A DNA stretch of 64,000 nucleotides from Escherichia virus KFS-EC. Location of the stretch: sequence record MH560358. The stretch is one strand, 5' to 3'. Positions 40,880-49,094 of this stretch are shown here, piece by piece (the first letter of the stretch is position 1; every line of letters begins with the position of its first letter). Position numbers and translations under genes: made by a program. A model generated the notes under the pieces. That model did not search any database. It was not told where the DNA came from and saw only the letters and a program-made list of their open reading frames with translations.

Positions 40880-40906
40880 GGAATCCTTCGGATTCCTTTT
40901 TCTTTT
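40880..40906 (+). terminator. intrinsic terminator
   Basis: GGAATCC-TTC-GGATTCC hairpin + T-run. Confidence 0.65.
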
Positions 40907-40953: not shown

Positions 40954-42195
40954 ATGACTCATATTTTTACTGAACTGTTGCGGGAATCTACTTCCTCAGT
41001 AGCTAACCAGACAGCGCGACCGCAACTATTATCATTAACTCGCGCGGTAAACAACCTGATTTTCTCTGATCTGGTAGCAATCCAACCAACGGATCAACCA
41101 GTATCTGCATTGTACGGCCTACGTTATCTTAATCGTGATGGTCAGATGACTTTCCGAACTGCTGCAACCTACGGTGGCGCGGCTGGTGATCGCACAGAGA
41201 TTGAAGAGTTTTCAAAAGAAAAATCTTATGACGAAGGCGCACTGTTCAAATCAGGCGATGTTGTATACGAAGTTGTGACCGCTGGTACAGTCGGTGAAGA
41301 TGCCGAAACTCCAGAATCTGCGATCTTTAAAGGCGTAATGACAAACAAAATTCGTTTCTATAGCGATTGTGCATCGGTAGAATACTTTGAAGATAAAAAC
41401 ACCGAAATTGTGTCTACCTCTATGCAGTTTGACAAGTGGCAAGTTAATGTAGGTTCTCGTAAACTGAAAACCTCGTTCACCACTGAATTAATGCAGGATC
41501 TTGAGGCAAGCCAAATCAACTCTGAAAACTCTGTAATTGATCTTCTGGCTACTGTTGCTTCCGAAGAGATCAACAAAGATATTATTCAGAAGTTGATCAC
41601 TGTATCATCTCGCTATAAAATTAAAGGGATCACCCCTGATGGCGTACTTTCTCTCGTTAGCGTTCAGGATGCACCATCACAAGCGCGTGAACTTTACCGC
41701 TATGCTTGCGAGATGAGCAATCAAATGTTGCGGACTTCCTCCTTTGCTGGTACATACGTTTTGGCGTCTTCTCGCGTGGTTGGCCTCCTGCAATCATCCG
41801 GTTGGATGGAAGAAACCGACAATGCTCTAAGCGAAGGTCGTCTACGTTGCGGTCTGGAAGTGTACGCAGACACGACAACACCTTTCGATTATATGCTCGT
41901 TGGTTGTAAGCACATGATCGGTGATATGGAGAGTGTAGGTTCTCTGTTCTACTCCCCATATACAGAAGCCGACGGCGCTGGCGCGTATAAGAGCGTAATT
42001 GACCCTAATAGCTTCCAGCATCATGTAGCTATTATGAATCGTTATTCACTCTCTGTCAACCCATACACATCAAAAGTTGATCAGGAAGAACACCAGGTCA
42101 TCAAGGGTGACGATTGGGGTAAAATGGCTGGACGTTCAGAAATGTCCTACATTTTAGGAATCGAACTGCCACCACTTGAGATTGACAACGCTTAA
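40954..42195 (+). CDS. 24: head vertex protein gp24
   Basis: ELLRESTSS...RPQLLSLTRA matches the recalled T4 gp24 N-terminus; track start 40906 lies within the late promoter so 40954 is preferred. Confidence 0.9.
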   Translation: MTHIFTELLRESTSSVANQTARPQLLSLTRAVNNLIFSDLVAIQPTDQPVSALYGLRYLNRDGQMTFRTAATYGGAAGDRTEIEEFSKEKSYDEGALFKSGDVVYEVVTAGTVGEDAETPESAIFKGVMTNKIRFYSDCASVEYFEDKNTEIVSTSMQFDKWQVNVGSRKLKTSFTTELMQDLEASQINSENSVIDLLATVASEEINKDIIQKLITVSSRYKIKGITPDGVLSLVSVQDAPSQARELYRYACEMSNQMLRTSSFAGTYVLASSRVVGLLQSSGWMEETDNALSEGRLRCGLEVYADTTTPFDYMLVGCKHMIGDMESVGSLFYSPYTEADGAGAYKSVIDPNSFQHHVAIMNRYSLSVNPYTSKVDQEEHQVIKGDDWGKMAGRSEMSYILGIELPPLEIDNA

Positions 42196-42783
42196 CTAAA
42201 TATCTAACCAAGACAAGTCAGATCCGCCCAAGATTTTTTCGACGGCGGATCTATTTTCTTGATGATATAAGTTAAAACATGGTATCCCATGTCTACGGGC
42301 AACATAAACAGCAATTCTAGTTCCTCCCGAAACGATTCCATTAACTTCTTTCGCCCAGAATATCACACAATCTACAGGATCATCAAGTGTCTCACCTAAG
42401 ACTTGAGCAACATTTCTAGAAAACAGATTTTGCATGTATAACGGTATAGAACGAGGATTATCATAAACGTGTTCTAATTCATCCATCGCCAGATTTTTTT
42501 GTTCTAAGGTTTGCCATGCAATCACATCATGACCGTTATGCTTGTGGTCATAAAACTTCCAATTTGGAATGAAAATTTTTCTATACTCTGGATCGTAATA
42601 CTTCATGAAAGCATTGTCCATACCGTAAGCCCCTCCAGAATGCGCTACAACGCGATTTTCTGACAATACCCTCCCAATGGTACTAGCCATTATCAAAATG
42701 TCGCTAGGCGCTTTTCTAGAGCCGATTAAAGCACATCTACGAAGTGGTTTTACTCCAAATAGATCTTGTAACTGGTCAAACAT
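42196..42783 (-). CDS. DprA/Smf-like (SLOG-type Rossmann fold) protein
   Basis: ALIGSRKAP...VVAHSGGAYGMDNAF and later IVSGGTRIAVYVARRHGIPCFNL resemble the DprA/SLOG nucleotide-binding signature; convergent with gp24. Confidence 0.45.
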   Translation of the reverse strand: MFDQLQDLFGVKPLRRCALIGSRKAPSDILIMASTIGRVLSENRVVAHSGGAYGMDNAFMKYYDPEYRKIFIPNWKFYDHKHNGHDVIAWQTLEQKNLAMDELEHVYDNPRSIPLYMQNLFSRNVAQVLGETLDDPVDCVIFWAKEVNGIVSGGTRIAVYVARRHGIPCFNLYHQENRSAVEKILGGSDLSWLDI

Positions 42784-42903
42784 AATATTTCCTCCATAGA
42801 AAGCAATATCATACTACAAGTTAATAACAAATACAAGTATCCGCGTAGCGGAAGCGAGCACAGCGAGCAATAAAACACTTCCAGTAATTGATTAATAAAT
42901 GTT

Positions 42904-42961
42904 CGAAACAAATTTTTATTATTCTATAAGATAAGTCTTCGTTTTGATCATAATTTAATCA
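42904..42961. repeat. copy B of ~45-bp repeated intergenic element
   Basis: CGAAACAAATTTTTATTATTCTATAAGATAAGTCTTCGTTTTGATCATAATTTAATCA. Confidence 0.7.
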
Positions 42962-43065
42962 TACATGTAAAAAACTACACAAAAGGATATCGCTTCGCGA
43001 ACTCCTACGGAGTATAACATTTGTGTTACAATATGTAGTGATTAATAATTAACCAAAGATACATT

Positions 43066-43111
43066 TTCTATGTTCTAAAGATCTTTCTTCGTTTTGATCA
43101 TAATTTAATCA
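43066..43111. repeat. copy C of ~45-bp repeated intergenic element
   Basis: TTCTAAAGATCTTTCTTCGTTTTGATCATAATTTAATCA; 24-nt identical to copy A, 26-nt identical to copy B. Confidence 0.7.
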
Positions 43112-43168
43112 AACAGTATTAATATTGTGCACATGTAAACTAAAATTATGTTAATAACAGATACAAAA

Positions 43169-43188
43169 AGCCGCCCCTAAGGACGGCT
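43169..43188 (-). terminator. possible terminator (minus orientation)
   Basis: AGCCGCC...GGACGGCT imperfect hairpin with T-run on minus strand, downstream of the 145-aa ORF. Confidence 0.4.
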
Positions 43189-43196
43189 AATGTTAA

Positions 43197-43634
43197 TTAT
43201 TTGTTGATAACGATCTGATTTCGGCGAATGGTAACATTACTCTTAGAGATGATCAGATCATCCGGCACTACGTTAGTTTTGTATGGCTGGAAGCGAACAA
43301 GCATCTGATTGCGTTTAGACCCTTCCTTAATCTTGATTTCCATCTGGATATTGTTGCCTACGTGAGCAACCGCAATTTCACCTTTATTCTCATAGACCCA
43401 CTTGCTGGTAACGTCTCCCGCAAAAGCCTTAATAACTTGCAATGCTTCGTCGTATGCGGTAGAGCTGTGAACTTTCAGAAGGCCAGCCGTAGCAAGACGG
43501 GAGCAGGTGATCGCCGGAGATTGCCAAACATCAACATTAATTTGCTCAATCAGCGTAACACCGCCCTGATCAACTGCTTTGAATGCTTCGAACATTGCCT
43601 TTTTCATTGCTACGTGGTTTTTACGGAATTTCAT
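43197..43634 (-). CDS. hypothetical protein (145 aa)
   Basis: ORF; no recognisable motif. Confidence 0.5.
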   Translation of the reverse strand: MKFRKNHVAMKKAMFEAFKAVDQGGVTLIEQINVDVWQSPAITCSRLATAGLLKVHSSTAYDEALQVIKAFAGDVTSKWVYENKGEIAVAHVGNNIQMEIKIKEGSKRNQMLVRFQPYKTNVVPDDLIISKSNVTIRRNQIVINK

Positions 43635-46642: not shown

Positions 46643-48145
46643 ATGCAAGATATTAAAATTCACTTTCTGAACTACTCCCATGTTCAAATTGAATGTAGCG
46701 ATTCAATTTTATTAGAAATGCGAGATTATTTTAGTTTTGAAGTCGAGGGAGCGCGGTTTCAAAAAAGATTTAAGTATGGTGGATGGGATGGGCGTATTCG
46801 TCTTTTAGATTACAACGGAAAGCTGCCAATCGGCCTAACTAAAACCGTGGGAATCTTCGCTAAAAATATGGGCTATAGCGTATGGGTAGATCCTCGCTTA
46901 TTCGAAAAAGAACAAGTTACAGAAGAAGAAATTACAAAATGGTGTAATGACTTAGAATTATATTCCGGTGCTAACAGGATCACCCCGCATTGGTATCAAT
47001 CAAAGGCTGTCTTTGAAGGTATCCATCATAAACGCCGTATGTTAGTTTTGCCTACGTCCGCTGGTAAATCTGCGATTGCTTGTATGTTGTCTCGCTGGTA
47101 CTTAGAGAACTACGAAGGGAAAGTGCTGATCATCGTTCCTACCACGTCGCTAGTGCTGCAAATGCGTGATGATTTTGTTGATTATCGCCAGTTTCCGTAT
47201 GAAGCAATTCATACTATCATGAGCGGTACTAGTAAACACGTAGGTGATCGCCTGATCGTTGTTAGTACGTGGCAATCAGCATGTAAACAGCCTCGTGAGT
47301 GGTTCCAACAATTTGGGATGGTAATTGTTGATGAATGTCACAAAGCCACTGCTAAAAACCTGCTAAACATCGTTACTGATATGGCTCATTGCCAATTTAA
47401 GATCGGCATGACTGGTTCCCCTCGTGACGGGAAAGCTAACATGATGCAGTATGTCGGGCTTTTCGGTGATATTTCCAAGATCGTGAGTATTGACCGCCTG
47501 ATGGAAGAAGGGCAGGTGACAAAACTGAAAATTAACTGTCTTTTCCTTCGTTATACCGATGAGGAATGTAGCGCGGTTAAGGGGCGAGAATATGCGGAAG
47601 AGATCAAGTATATTACGTCTAACCCACGACGAAATAAGTTTGCTTGTAATTTGGCGCTAAAACTCGCTAAGAAGGGCGAAAACGTATTCCTTATGTTCCG
47701 CAATACTAAGCACGGAAAACTTATGTATGACGCGTTACAGAAGGTACACGACAAGGTTTATTATATTGACGGTGGAGTTAAGACAGAAGAACGTGATGAA
47801 TTTAAGAAAATGGCGGAGGGTGACACCGGGATCATTTGTGTTGCGTCTTATGGTGTATTCTCTACTGGTGTTTCAATTAAGAATTTGCATCATGTTATTT
47901 TCGGTCATCCAGTGAAGGAATCAACTATCGTTCGTCAGAGTATCGGTCGTGCATTGCGTAAACATGGTTCGAAAGACATTGCAACGGTCTGGGATCTTAT
48001 AGATCATCTGGCGGTGAAGACAAAGAGCAAGAATGCTAAGAAACAGTTTAGCCACCTTAATTATGCTCTTAAACATGCGCTTGAAAGAATAAAAATTTAT
48101 AACACCGATCGATTCGAATATGTCACGAAAACAATCGAGATTTAA
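46643..48145 (+). CDS. uvsW: UvsW SF2 DNA helicase
   Basis: MQDIKIHF N-terminus like recalled T4 UvsW; Walker A LPTSAGKS, DECH box (VVDECHKAT). Confidence 0.85.
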   Translation: MQDIKIHFLNYSHVQIECSDSILLEMRDYFSFEVEGARFQKRFKYGGWDGRIRLLDYNGKLPIGLTKTVGIFAKNMGYSVWVDPRLFEKEQVTEEEITKWCNDLELYSGANRITPHWYQSKAVFEGIHHKRRMLVLPTSAGKSAIACMLSRWYLENYEGKVLIIVPTTSLVLQMRDDFVDYRQFPYEAIHTIMSGTSKHVGDRLIVVSTWQSACKQPREWFQQFGMVIVDECHKATAKNLLNIVTDMAHCQFKIGMTGSPRDGKANMMQYVGLFGDISKIVSIDRLMEEGQVTKLKINCLFLRYTDEECSAVKGREYAEEIKYITSNPRRNKFACNLALKLAKKGENVFLMFRNTKHGKLMYDALQKVHDKVYYIDGGVKTEERDEFKKMAEGDTGIICVASYGVFSTGVSIKNLHHVIFGHPVKESTIVRQSIGRALRKHGSKDIATVWDLIDHLAVKTKSKNAKKQFSHLNYALKHALERIKIYNTDRFEYVTKTIEI

Positions 48146-48188
48146 TAAATAGGGGCTTTAATGCCCCTTTATTCTACGGAGATTAAAA

Positions 48189-48425
48189 ATGATTAGCTTT
48201 AAACGTTTTTTGGTTGAGGCCGCTATTGACGGTTTCATGCGTAAGATTTATTCTTGTAATACTATCGAGGGATTAAATGAACTTGAGGCATATTATGAGA
48301 AGCGCAAGAAAGAAACAGAATTGAAACCTGCTGATGATATTTCGATCCGTGATGCCATCGCCGGACGCCGTAAGCAATTGGAAGCGGACAACGAGCCAGA
48401 AGAGGAGCCGGAAGAAGATTTTTAA
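48189..48425 (+). CDS. uvsW.1: UvsW.1-like small protein
   Basis: 78-aa ORF directly after uvsW; acidic C-terminus. Confidence 0.6.
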   Translation: MISFKRFLVEAAIDGFMRKIYSCNTIEGLNELEAYYEKRKKETELKPADDISIRDAIAGRRKQLEADNEPEEEPEEDF

Positions 48426-48686: not shown

Positions 48687-49094
48687 TTAGCGTCCAGATT
48701 CCAGCATACGCAATTCTATAGCATTCTTGATCGCAAATCCACGAGATTTAACGATATCAAGTGCGCGACCAGCAAAATCCATTACCATCTGGTAATATGC
48801 AATTTTCGTATCAAGCGGTAAGATCTCGTCGTCTGCTGCCATGACAACTTTCAATTCTGATTTCTCATATTCAGCGCGACACCAGTCATCACTACGGTTA
48901 GTGTAAAAGTCAAGACGATTTTTCATAGCCTTTTTCTTTTTAGCCTCAAGAGCAATCGTCTCTCTTTTCGCCTCGCTGTAAATCCTTAACCACTTTGAGT
49001 ATACTACCGGATTATTCAGCGCCTCCCATTGCAACTTAGTCGCATCGATCTTCATGTCAGCTTCTAATTGTTCTTTCAAATCGTTTAGGTCCAT
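48687..49094 (-). CDS. uvsY: recombination mediator UvsY
   Basis: DLNDLKEQLEADMKIDATKLQWEA...KSRGFAIKNAIELRMLE matches the recalled T4 UvsY. Confidence 0.9.
   Translation of the reverse strand: MDLNDLKEQLEADMKIDATKLQWEALNNPVVYSKWLRIYSEAKRETIALEAKKKKAMKNRLDFYTNRSDDWCRAEYEKSELKVVMAADDEILPLDTKIAYYQMVMDFAGRALDIVKSRGFAIKNAIELRMLESGR

Follow-up and report, generated by a model that had tools for sequence, protein, structure and literature searches.

The nearest characterised relative of the PHROG 768 clade, a large and mainly viral group of SLOG Rossmann proteins, is the Rossmann domain of DprA/Smf. In the bacterial proteins (PDB 3MAJ, 4LJK/4LJR, 3UQZ) this domain is accompanied by an N-terminal SAM domain and/or a C-terminal winged-helix/DML1 domain. 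Three arginines were shown to contact single-stranded DNA (ssDNA), namely R52, R143 and R170 in Helicobacter pylori DprA and R139, R234 and R261 in ShosA, the DprA-like antitoxin of the ShosTA system (PMC12961424). The same work found that ShosA needs its SAM domain for stability and does not bind the toxin ShosT directly (PMC12961424). Another group found that ShosA is unstable and that host shut-off releases ShosT (PMC11961720). Iyer et al. 2021 (PMC7824862) independently suggested that the DprA/Smf SLOG proteins of jumbo phages may serve as additional ssDNA binders, and the sole experimental localisation of a phage 'DprA' is that of Erwinia phage RAY gp153, which is nuclear, with UvsX (bioRxiv 10.1101/2023.02.24.529968).

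Members of PHROG 768 such as those of JSE (NC_012740), of phi92 (gp47-like) and of Klebsiella phage Mineola (gp230) share the same size of about 180-200 aa and the same motifs, and the protein described here shows no substantive difference from them. The family name is a homology-based label, and experimental work on any PHROG 768 member was not found in the literature. The RefSeq record of JSE (NC_012740) and several Pharokka-annotated genomes already label the gene 'DprA-like'; since it is thus catalogued under the same label, the finding itself is not new. What is added here is the delineation of a distinct DprA-like clade, its tandem with rnlB in other T-even genera, its fusion partners and comparative support for a terminator lying within the gene.

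Genomic setting

The 64-kb window, that is the whole stretch of DNA analysed, comes from a Krischvirus, an RB49/JSE/phi1-like relative of the T-even phages. The gene and its immediate surroundings are delimited as follows.

40954..42195, plus strand: gp24 capsid vertex gene, which runs towards the DprA-like gene and whose transcript the terminator would presumably end
42196..42783, minus strand: DprA-like gene, coding sequence for a single-domain SLOG protein of 195 aa, TAG stop (42196-42198) included
42791..42795, minus strand: Shine-Dalgarno sequence GGAGG, 7 nt 5' of the DprA-like ATG, read directly from the sequence

The reading frame opens with ATG at 42783-42781 (minus strand), and the three motifs that had been quoted for this 195-aa ORF in the first-pass annotation are all present, with IGSRKAP at residues 20-26, HSGGAYGMD at 48-56 and SGGTRIA at 152-158. 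The gp24 TAA (42193-42195) abuts the TAG of the DprA-like gene, leaving zero spacer between the two convergent genes. T4 gp24 aligns by tblastn with 46% identity across 40972-42186, and the gene 24 coding sequence of phage G2494 is annotated as 1242 nt. Besides gp24, the neighbours of the DprA-like gene are a phrog_15652 protein and a DUF2774 protein; in Pfam, the neighbouring PHROG protein matched nothing.

An identical or 99%-identical protein is carried by 57 deposited Krischvirus genomes, and the 25 best of these 57 matching genomes show 98.6-99.1% identity across the 2.7-kb region around the gene. Beyond the genus, the protein was detected by tblastn in 1,352 of 50,697 phage records, from Krischvirus, Jiaodavirus, Moonvirus, Acinetobacter Lazarusvirus and Aeromonas and Vibrio phages to Pseudomonas Nankokuvirus, phiKZ-like jumbo phages and phi92-like phages. 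An exhaustive HMM search (E <= 1e-3) collected 4,319 family representatives at 50% clustering, mostly stand-alone proteins of about 175-200 aa, and a scan of bacterial genomes with narrow search patterns gave 3 loci.

Protein family and fold

The protein is a single-domain member of the PHROG 768 clade. Its match to the profile phrog_768 ('DprA-like DNA recombination-mediator protein') is full-length, with an E-value of 1.3e-60 and residues 15-187 aligned to positions 4-181 of the 191 profile positions, which places it in this family. An AlphaFold2 model built with 32 homologues is confident (pLDDT 94.1, pTM 0.89) and contains a single domain, only the last ~15 residues (181-195) being uncertain; beyond N171 the pLDDT falls to 77 and then to 47. 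The model displays the hallmarks of a SLOG protein, that is a Rossmannoid fold of three layers in which glycine-rich loops follow strands 1 and 2 and another such loop lies near the C-terminus. Taken together, the PHROG match and the model uphold the SLOG/DprA-like fold and family assignment that had been made from the sequence motifs. The predicted pI is 6.4, hence mildly acidic.

Other profile libraries gave a more limited picture. The DprA family PF02481 was the sole Pfam match, but with 22.3 bits it lies under the gathering threshold of 29.6 and covers residues 15-60 only, in other words the N-terminal motifs. The NCBIfam DprA equivalog TIGR00732 scored 14.4 bits against a cut-off of 191.15. 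No Pfam SLOG family other than DprA matched at an E-value below 10, including PF03641 (LOG). The family assignment was thus borne out full-length by PHROG 768; of the profile searches suggested by the first-pass annotation, PF02481 stayed below threshold and the LOG and YpsA families had no match. Searching PDB sequences with the family profile yielded H. pylori DprA alone (E 3e-4), over its N-terminal 49 residues, and the structural neighbours found in BFVD belong to the same unnamed family as the DprA-like protein. In structure comparison, the predicted model also resembles other SLOG proteins, with scores of 12.0 for a MoCo-carrier protein, 11.8 for TM1055, 11.3 for ShosA, 11.2 for YpsA, 11.1 for LOG and 9.7 for the 3'cADPR-binding SLOG domain of ThsA; judged on this model, DprA is only slightly ahead of the other SLOG families.

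Relation to DprA/Smf and other SLOG proteins

The phage protein is not an orthologous DprA but belongs to a separate, mostly viral clade of single-domain proteins. It is no DprA orthologue because it falls below both curated thresholds, it lacks the N-terminal SAM and C-terminal winged-helix/DML1 domains of the bacterial proteins, and Escherichia coli Smf maps to PHROGs 4299, 38708, 30500 and 9185 and not to 768. It counts 195 aa versus 374 aa for E. coli Smf, and identity with the bacterial proteins is ~20% across ~130 aligned residues. An hhalign comparison of the family profile with E. coli Smf aligned the N-terminal 66 columns only, with low probability, and the comparison with Smf is therefore based on motif order and spacing instead of hhalign. 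The four motifs of the Rossmann domain are collinear in the two proteins, at GSR 21, SGGAYGMD 49, RN 123 and SGG-TR 152 in the phage protein and at GSR 114, SGLARGID 142, RN 211 and SGS..TAR 231 in Smf, and SGxAxGxD follows GSR at a distance of 28 residues in either protein.

An alignment of 161 diverse PHROG 768 members shows that the clade has kept one nearly invariant pocket, made of G-S-R23, S49-G-G-A-x-G-x-D56, R123-N-x-x-Q127 and G153-G-T155-x-x-A158. Conservation reaches 98% for R23, 97% for S49, 100% for G50, 99% for A52 and G54, and 100% for D56 in the first part of the protein, then 99% for R123, 96% for N124, 97% for Q127, 99% for G153, G154 and T155, 96% for A158 and 97% for N171, the last near-invariant residue. 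The spacings of 91-95 and 27 residues between the ssDNA-contacting arginines of H. pylori DprA and ShosA indicate that these belong to the motifs GSR, RN and T(A)R. By motif alignment rather than structural superposition, the first two correspond to R23 (98%) and R123 (99%). The third would be R156, placed in the same way, which is found in the DprA-like protein and its close relatives but not family-wide.

As regards the other SLOG groups, profile matches to LOG, YpsA, MoCo-carrier and ThsA-SLOG families are absent and the phage protein has the DprA-type GSR and RN motifs. LOG enzymes carry a catalytic glutamate in PGGxGTxxE, in contrast to the GGTxxA of the phage family, where Ala158 stands in 96% of members; this replacement of the catalytic glutamate argues against LOG-type chemistry. 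Transfer of the nuclear localisation of RAY gp153 was considered and rejected: gp153 belongs to phrog_11222/652, it has no profile similarity to the DprA-like family and, as a member of a different family, its localisation cannot be carried over.

The DprA-like antitoxins ShosA and PsyrA/RqlI of the ShosTA and PsyrTA systems raise the question of counter-defence. The protein could be a stand-alone decoy that mimics these antitoxins, either keeping a host toxin silent or taking over the DNA or RecA contacts of the antitoxin. A stable phage-made substitute would be advantageous given that ShosA is unstable and ShosT is released on shut-off, and the gene is an accessory one, present in many large lytic phages and absent beside gene 24 in T4. 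PADLOC did report weak matches to the antitoxins PsyrA (E 4e-5) and ShosA (E 3.5e-4), but these span residues 15-61 only, a motif common to all DprA-like proteins. Furthermore, the phage protein has no SAM domain, which stabilises ShosA, and the lack of direct binding between ShosA and ShosT leaves a simple decoy without an obvious target. ShosTA and PsyrTA are toxin-antitoxin defence systems, whereas the gene described here is a lytic-phage gene in a conserved neighbourhood of structural genes, and the neighbours gave no phosphoribosyltransferase (PRTase, as ShosT) or helicase (RecQ-like, as PsyrT/RqlH) match that would indicate an adjoining toxin gene. Unlike fast-turnover anti-defence genes, the family is of great age and keeps its synteny with capsid genes throughout the T4 superfamily, and an anti-defence report for it was not found in the literature. 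We consider a decoy function improbable. The mention of defence and counter-defence contexts in the first-pass annotation accordingly gained no direct support, the only signal being the weak PADLOC matches to the N-terminal motif shared with PsyrA and ShosA.

Gene order and the link with rnlB

In T4, rnlB lies antisense directly after gene 24, and the DprA-like gene is absent beside gene 24. The gene thus occupies the site where T4 has rnlB, as had been noted at first reading. A substitution of rnlB by the DprA-like gene was nevertheless rejected as an explanation, the two genes being found together, rnlB immediately followed by the DprA-like gene, in Jiaodavirus, Moonvirus and at least 8 other T-even-like loci. 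In Klebsiella phage Mineola (Jiaodavirus) they lie on the same strand with a 1-nt overlap, and in the Moonvirus Citrobacter phage CF1 the DprA-like gene comes directly after rnlB. When T4 Rnl2 was searched by tblastn in 80 IMG/VR loci, its end coincided with the start of the DprA-like gene in 10 T-even-like loci, and in an eleventh it was one gene away. Krischvirus loci were the only T-even-like ones without Rnl2 at the DprA-like site, and no Rnl2 homologue that could represent a relocated rnlB was detected within the 64-kb window.

Judging from these sequences, the fuller arrangement is ...24.3, 24.2, rnlB, DprA-like, convergent with gene 24; compared with it, T4 is without the DprA-like gene and Krischvirus is without rnlB at this place. 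With regard to the first-pass suggestion to look for homologues beside gp24, the gene is convergent with a gp24 homologue in all six diverged relatives for which DNA was compared (loci L014, L007, L003, L004, L005 and L006). In addition, nine very distant loci of the T4 superfamily keep a gp23/24-like capsid gene in convergent orientation 1-4 kb downstream, which indicates that the position is old.

Candidate expression signals upstream of the gene

Three elements were found on the minus strand upstream of the gene.

43169..43188, minus strand: intrinsic terminator closing the upstream early transcription unit, with an 8-bp stem (6 GC pairs) plus TTTTTGTAT, from the terminator scan
42840..42852, minus strand: short stem-loop TCCGCTACGCGGA just 5' of the candidate promoter, a terminator-like scan match
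42808..42836, minus strand: candidate sigma70-like early-type promoter, TTGTAT-17 nt-TATGAT, read from the sequence

The terminator at 43188-43169 is also annotated (ARNOLD) in phage G2494 and is followed by a gap of 315 bp without ORFs. As it ends the upstream unit, the DprA-like gene would need a promoter of its own. The candidate promoter matches 8 of 12 consensus positions, which is why it is missing from the promoter-scan list. A unit made of a hairpin and TTGTATyTGTTATTAAC recurs at 43188-43150, the motif itself lying at 43166-43150, after the upstream terminator.

The stem-loop and the candidate promoter resemble, at the sequence level, the PeSL cassettes (promoter-early stem-loop, that is a stem-loop and an early promoter) described in RB49/phi1 and noted near hoc (Arbiol et al. 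2010, PMC2839356). As in RB49-type phages, a stem-loop is followed by a candidate sigma70-like promoter 5' of the gene in the hoc/24.3 plastic region, but the promoter hexamers here agree at 8 of 12 positions and the stem is without the GGGG...CCCC signature. The gene may therefore be one that is transcribed early from its own weak promoter.

A probable gene 24 terminator inside the coding sequence

The 3' end of the gene contains, on the opposite strand, the two parts of a putative terminator.

42220..42252, plus strand (gp24 sense): hairpin AGATCCGCC-(15-nt loop)-GGCGGATCT, inside codons 178-188 of the minus-strand gene
42253..42260, plus strand (gp24 sense): T-tract ATTTTCTT following the hairpin, the other strand of which encodes Q175-E-N177

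The element has the composition of an intrinsic terminator, with a 9-bp stem containing 6 GC pairs plus AUUUUCUU, located 25 nt past the gp24 stop, although its 15-nt loop is atypical. It stays outside the output of the simple terminator scan because that scan accepts loops of 3-8 nt only. In the minus-strand frame, the stem arms correspond to R178-S-A180 and G186-G-S188; with the T-tract at residues 175-177, the hairpin begins 18 codons before the stop and the whole element lies within the last 21 codons, in agreement with the earlier statement that the last ~18 codons encode the gp24 hairpin. The convergent terminators and PeSLs of RB49-type phages are intergenic, whereas this one sits within a coding sequence.

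It is very probable, from the comparison of diverged sequences, that the hairpin truly terminates gene 24 and has been overprinted on a C-terminal tail that tolerates it, codons 175-188 providing, when read from the other strand, a Rho-independent terminator for the late transcript of the convergent gene 24. Alternatively, and this appears unlikely, it would not terminate transcription at all, its conservation being a by-product of selection on the residues R-S/T-A...G-G-S and on codon usage, or of an action in the minus-strand mRNA, for example as a 3' stabiliser. In support of a terminator, the 86-nt hairpin region reaches -28.9 kcal/mol versus -11.6 +/- 2.8 for shuffled sequences (z = -6.2, 0 of 200 shuffles as good). 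The minus strand folds equally well (-31 kcal/mol, z = -5.7), which, together with a loop that is long for an intrinsic terminator and the lack of a call by the standard scan, counts for the alternative. The minus strand has no U-run after the hairpin, however, and only in the gp24 sense does a T-run persist 3' of the stem, through four different amino-acid triplets (QEN, MKK, IKI and QKN).

The relatives with available DNA have protein identities of 86% (L014), 71% (L007), 57% (L003 and L004), 59% (L005) and 50% (L006). The hairpin is found at the same codons in the first five (57-86% identity), and 97.8% of the cells of the alignment are paired. Seven of the nine stem pairs are invariant and hence uninformative on pairing. 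One pair is compensatory (U-A to A-U), in which a Ser-to-Thr change (TCC to ACC) is matched in the other arm by a synonymous change of Gly (GGA to GGT), which counts against the alternative; it probably represents a single event, and a covariation score as high as the observed one arises in 48 of 500 column shuffles. Retention of the same codon is higher inside than outside the element in L007 (78% vs 40%, p = 0.03), but the other three of the four comparisons are not significant.

Two relatives also count against the alternative. In L005 the internal hairpin persists even though 40 nt of intergenic spacer are free, and L006, from which the internal hairpin is absent, has a separate intergenic GC hairpin, GGGGGCATTCGCCCCC, instead. 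Moreover, the element lies past N171, where the protein is least conserved and its model least confident, which makes a strong constraint at the protein level unlikely. The overlap with the gp24 terminator claimed in the first-pass annotation is therefore strengthened by conservation in diverged relatives. An extended 80-nt palindrome around the hairpin was dismissed as a feature, as it is not conserved in these relatives, and an Rfam scan of 42000-43400 returned a chance-level match only.

Neighbours, fusions and proposed function

Outside the T-even phages no dominant operon partner emerged: the 123 neighbour proteins, taken from 36 non-redundant viral loci, include no family with more than 4 occurrences. 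The commonest were GapR-like proteins (4), the helicase AAA_30 (2), DUF1937 (2) and DUF4406 (2), and ThyX, Tmk, NAMPT, UvdE, SNF2 and DUF4326 occurred once each. In Nankokuvirus the gene lies between an ATP-dependent DNA ligase and a helicase; a possible link with RNA ligases in these phages was abandoned, the nearby 'polynucleotide ligase' being that ATP-dependent DNA ligase.

The DprA-like domain is also found fused to other domains, and these fusions say more than the neighbours do. It is joined to NADAR in four two-domain proteins of about 320 aa, and two proteins of ~1,480 aa combine it with YAcAr and LDcluster4 SLOG domains and NADAR. Other fusions involve RecJ (DHH-DHHA1-OB) and DUF4326, and an AlkB-like 2OG oxygenase was found in one giant ORF and DUF4326 in another. 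The giant ORFs L033 and L037 also contain the domain but gave no Pfam match; they may have arisen from faulty ORF calling or from the use of alternative genetic codes. NADAR enzymes reverse guanine ADP-ribosylation in ssDNA, RecJ is an ssDNA exonuclease and AlkB acts in the repair of single-stranded nucleic acids; what the fusions and the ligase neighbours share is thus work on single-stranded or damaged nucleic acid.

By analogy, the gene is proposed to encode a dispensable, early, single-domain protein that would bind single-stranded nucleic acid through its DprA-type pocket and would aid phage DNA repair, recombination or replication, a reading that we prefer while holding belief and doubt in equal measure. 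Synthesis would start early, from the gene's own PeSL-like promoter, and the protein, with single-stranded nucleic acid bound in its pocket, would serve as a dispensable accessory factor that, for example, holds or protects ssDNA or passes it on to a partner enzyme. Since the corresponding arginines of DprA and ShosA contact ssDNA, the ligand is most likely single-stranded nucleic acid and probably ssDNA. Both the fusions to RecJ, NADAR, DUF4326 and AlkB-like repair modules and the neighbours, that is Rnl2 in T-evens, DNA ligase and helicase in Nankokuvirus and helicases, UvdE, SNF2 and GapR elsewhere, most likely point in the same direction by analogy.

Several observations count against ssDNA binding. 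The Pfam and TIGRFAM DprA models fall short of their thresholds, R156 is not family-wide and the pI is 6.4. The SAM and C-terminal domains that canonical DprA and ShosA use for stability and partner contacts are missing. Finally, nucleotide or ADP-ribose chemistry would account just as well for the fusions to NADAR and to several SLOG domains.

A role as a replacement for the recombination mediator UvsY was also considered and discarded: uvsY is present at 48690-49094 in the window and, the phage already having UvsY, a mediator role for the DprA-like protein would be redundant.

A distinctly less probable but still plausible possibility is that the protein is a classical SLOG module acting on a small molecule (free nucleotide, NAD or ADP-ribose derivative) and not on ssDNA, either in NAD/ADP-ribose-linked repair with Rnl2 or NADAR, or by quenching a host nucleotide signal. 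The recurrent NADAR fusions and the giant proteins with YAcAr and LDcluster4 SLOGs would suit such a function, as would DUF4326, which is both fused and neighbouring, neighbours such as NAMPT, the deoxyribosyltransferase-like DUF1937 and DUF4406, the 1-nt overlap of the gene with rnlB in Mineola and the neutral to acidic pI. However, the LOG motif PGGxGTxxE is replaced by GGTxxA with its conserved Ala158, no Pfam SLOG family other than DprA appeared at an E-value below 10, and the RN motif shared with DprA is, to our knowledge, DprA-type and not a feature of the LOG, YpsA and ThsA families. The known phage sponges Tad1, Tad2, Acb2 and Acb4 have other folds, and a SLOG sponge was not found in the literature. 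The adjacency to Rnl2, for its part, is limited to one viral lineage and may be plain inherited synteny.

A more speculative proposal, which we consider improbable, is that PHROG 768 forms the substrate-recognition half of a phage pathway reversing nucleic-acid damage rather than a recombination mediator. Its pocket would recognise nucleotides that are modified or broken within single-stranded DNA or RNA, such as a base ADP-ribosylated by DarT-type toxins or a cleaved tRNA end, and would hand them to a partner enzyme, namely Rnl2 in T-evens, or NADAR, AlkB-like, RecJ and DUF4326 modules when fused.

Implications

The gene is properly labelled a DprA-like SLOG protein and not an orthologous DprA, and the label 'RNA ligase', present in several GenBank records at or beside the gene, should be avoided. 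The probable terminator within the coding tail neatly illustrates how a densely packed phage genome can use the same letters twice, although it is unsurprising in itself. If the damage-reversal proposal were true, it would provide a physiological context for the long-orphan T4 Rnl2 and a new counter-defence module. The tandem of rnlB with the DprA-like gene and the fusions to NADAR, RecJ and AlkB-like modules are testable leads, one of which bears on the physiological role of T4 RNA ligase 2. As the family is large, and ancient within the T4 superfamily, the biochemistry of one member would serve to annotate thousands of genes.

The DprA-like gene and rnlB in other phages

In other T-even genera, the DprA-like gene lies immediately 3' of rnlB, the gene for RNA ligase 2. 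This tandem, rnlB followed by the DprA-like gene, was observed at the following compared loci:

L009 2991-4546, Klebsiella phage Mineola, with a 1-nt overlap
L008 3001-4543, Citrobacter phage CF1
L016-L023, L043 and L054, T-even-like loci

The CF1 record annotates rnlB as two CDSs, so this phage may carry a split rnlB or a pseudogene. In four phage records, MW748999 (Skers), MW021751 (Cronuts), OL849997 (KMB17) and LT614807 (Pet-CM3-4), the annotated features that coincide with the DprA-like match bear the name 'RNA ligase' or 'RNA ligase 2'. These labels were probably assigned by synteny with T4 rnlB, and in some of the records the label may belong to an overlapping neighbour gene.

The region upstream of the DprA-like gene

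A 315-bp gap without ORFs, unusually long for a T4-like genome, is present upstream of the DprA-like gene in the window. Within it, a 38-nt direct repeat is present twice, 150 nt apart and with 89% identity, and no Rfam family matched the gap. The gap could hold remnants of PeSL (promoter-early stem-loop) cassettes, a small RNA or the trace of a deleted gene such as rnlB. A unit made of a GC hairpin followed by TTGTATyTGTTATTAAC was also found twice in the window and resembles the PeSL cassettes, a stem-loop plus an early promoter, of RB49 and phi1, in which these cassettes reportedly drive modular shuffling (PMC2839356).

42853-43168, ORF-free gap
42928-42965 and 43078-43115, copies of the 38-nt direct repeat inside the gap
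43150-43188 and 42820-42852, minus strand, GC hairpin and TTGTATyTGTTATTAAC units

Other genes of the window

A strong terminator-like hairpin (GGAATCCTTCGGATTCC then a T-run) is located at 40880-40905, directly 5' of gene 24. In the gp24 ORF, the TTG at 40906 is the earliest in-frame start codon, and the deposited annotations imply a CDS of 1242 nt starting at the ATG at 40954. Further along, the match to T4 UvsW (46649-48371, plus strand) consists of two pieces in different frames:

46649-48160, plus strand, first piece
48174-48371, plus strand, second piece

In T4, uvsW and uvsW.1 presumably form a two-ORF arrangement; the T4 RefSeq table lists one uvsW CDS only. Downstream of the match, uvsY (48690-49094) and then gene 25 follow in the same order as in T4.

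Domain fusions and the DprA label

Some giant proteins also include the DprA-like domain. It is combined there with NADAR, YAcAr and LDcluster4 SLOG domains, DUF4326, DUF7831 or an AlkB-like oxygenase. P0040 and P0042 (~1,480 aa) are examples of such proteins, and giant ORFs carrying the domain occur at three loci:

L037 55-8631
L087 1051-10221
L074 3643-7983

For two of the giant ORFs with this domain, Pfam gave no match; they may result from faulty ORF calling or contain recoded stop codons.

Erwinia phage RAY gp153 (L094 7630-8511), called 'DprA-like', localises to the phage nucleus (bioRxiv 10.1101/2023.02.24.529968). Its C-terminal part is GTP-binding-like. As gp153 falls in phrog_11222/652 and at the profile level is unrelated to PHROG 768, the family of the window gene, the DprA label covers two different phage families.

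Position beside the head genes

In very distant metagenomic viruses of the T4 superfamily (L035, L050, L053, L057, L058, L062, L068, L069 and L071), whose DprA-like proteins are ~30-35% identical, a gp23/24-like capsid gene is still found in convergent orientation 1-4 kb downstream of the DprA-like gene. The placement of this gene beside head genes is therefore ancient.
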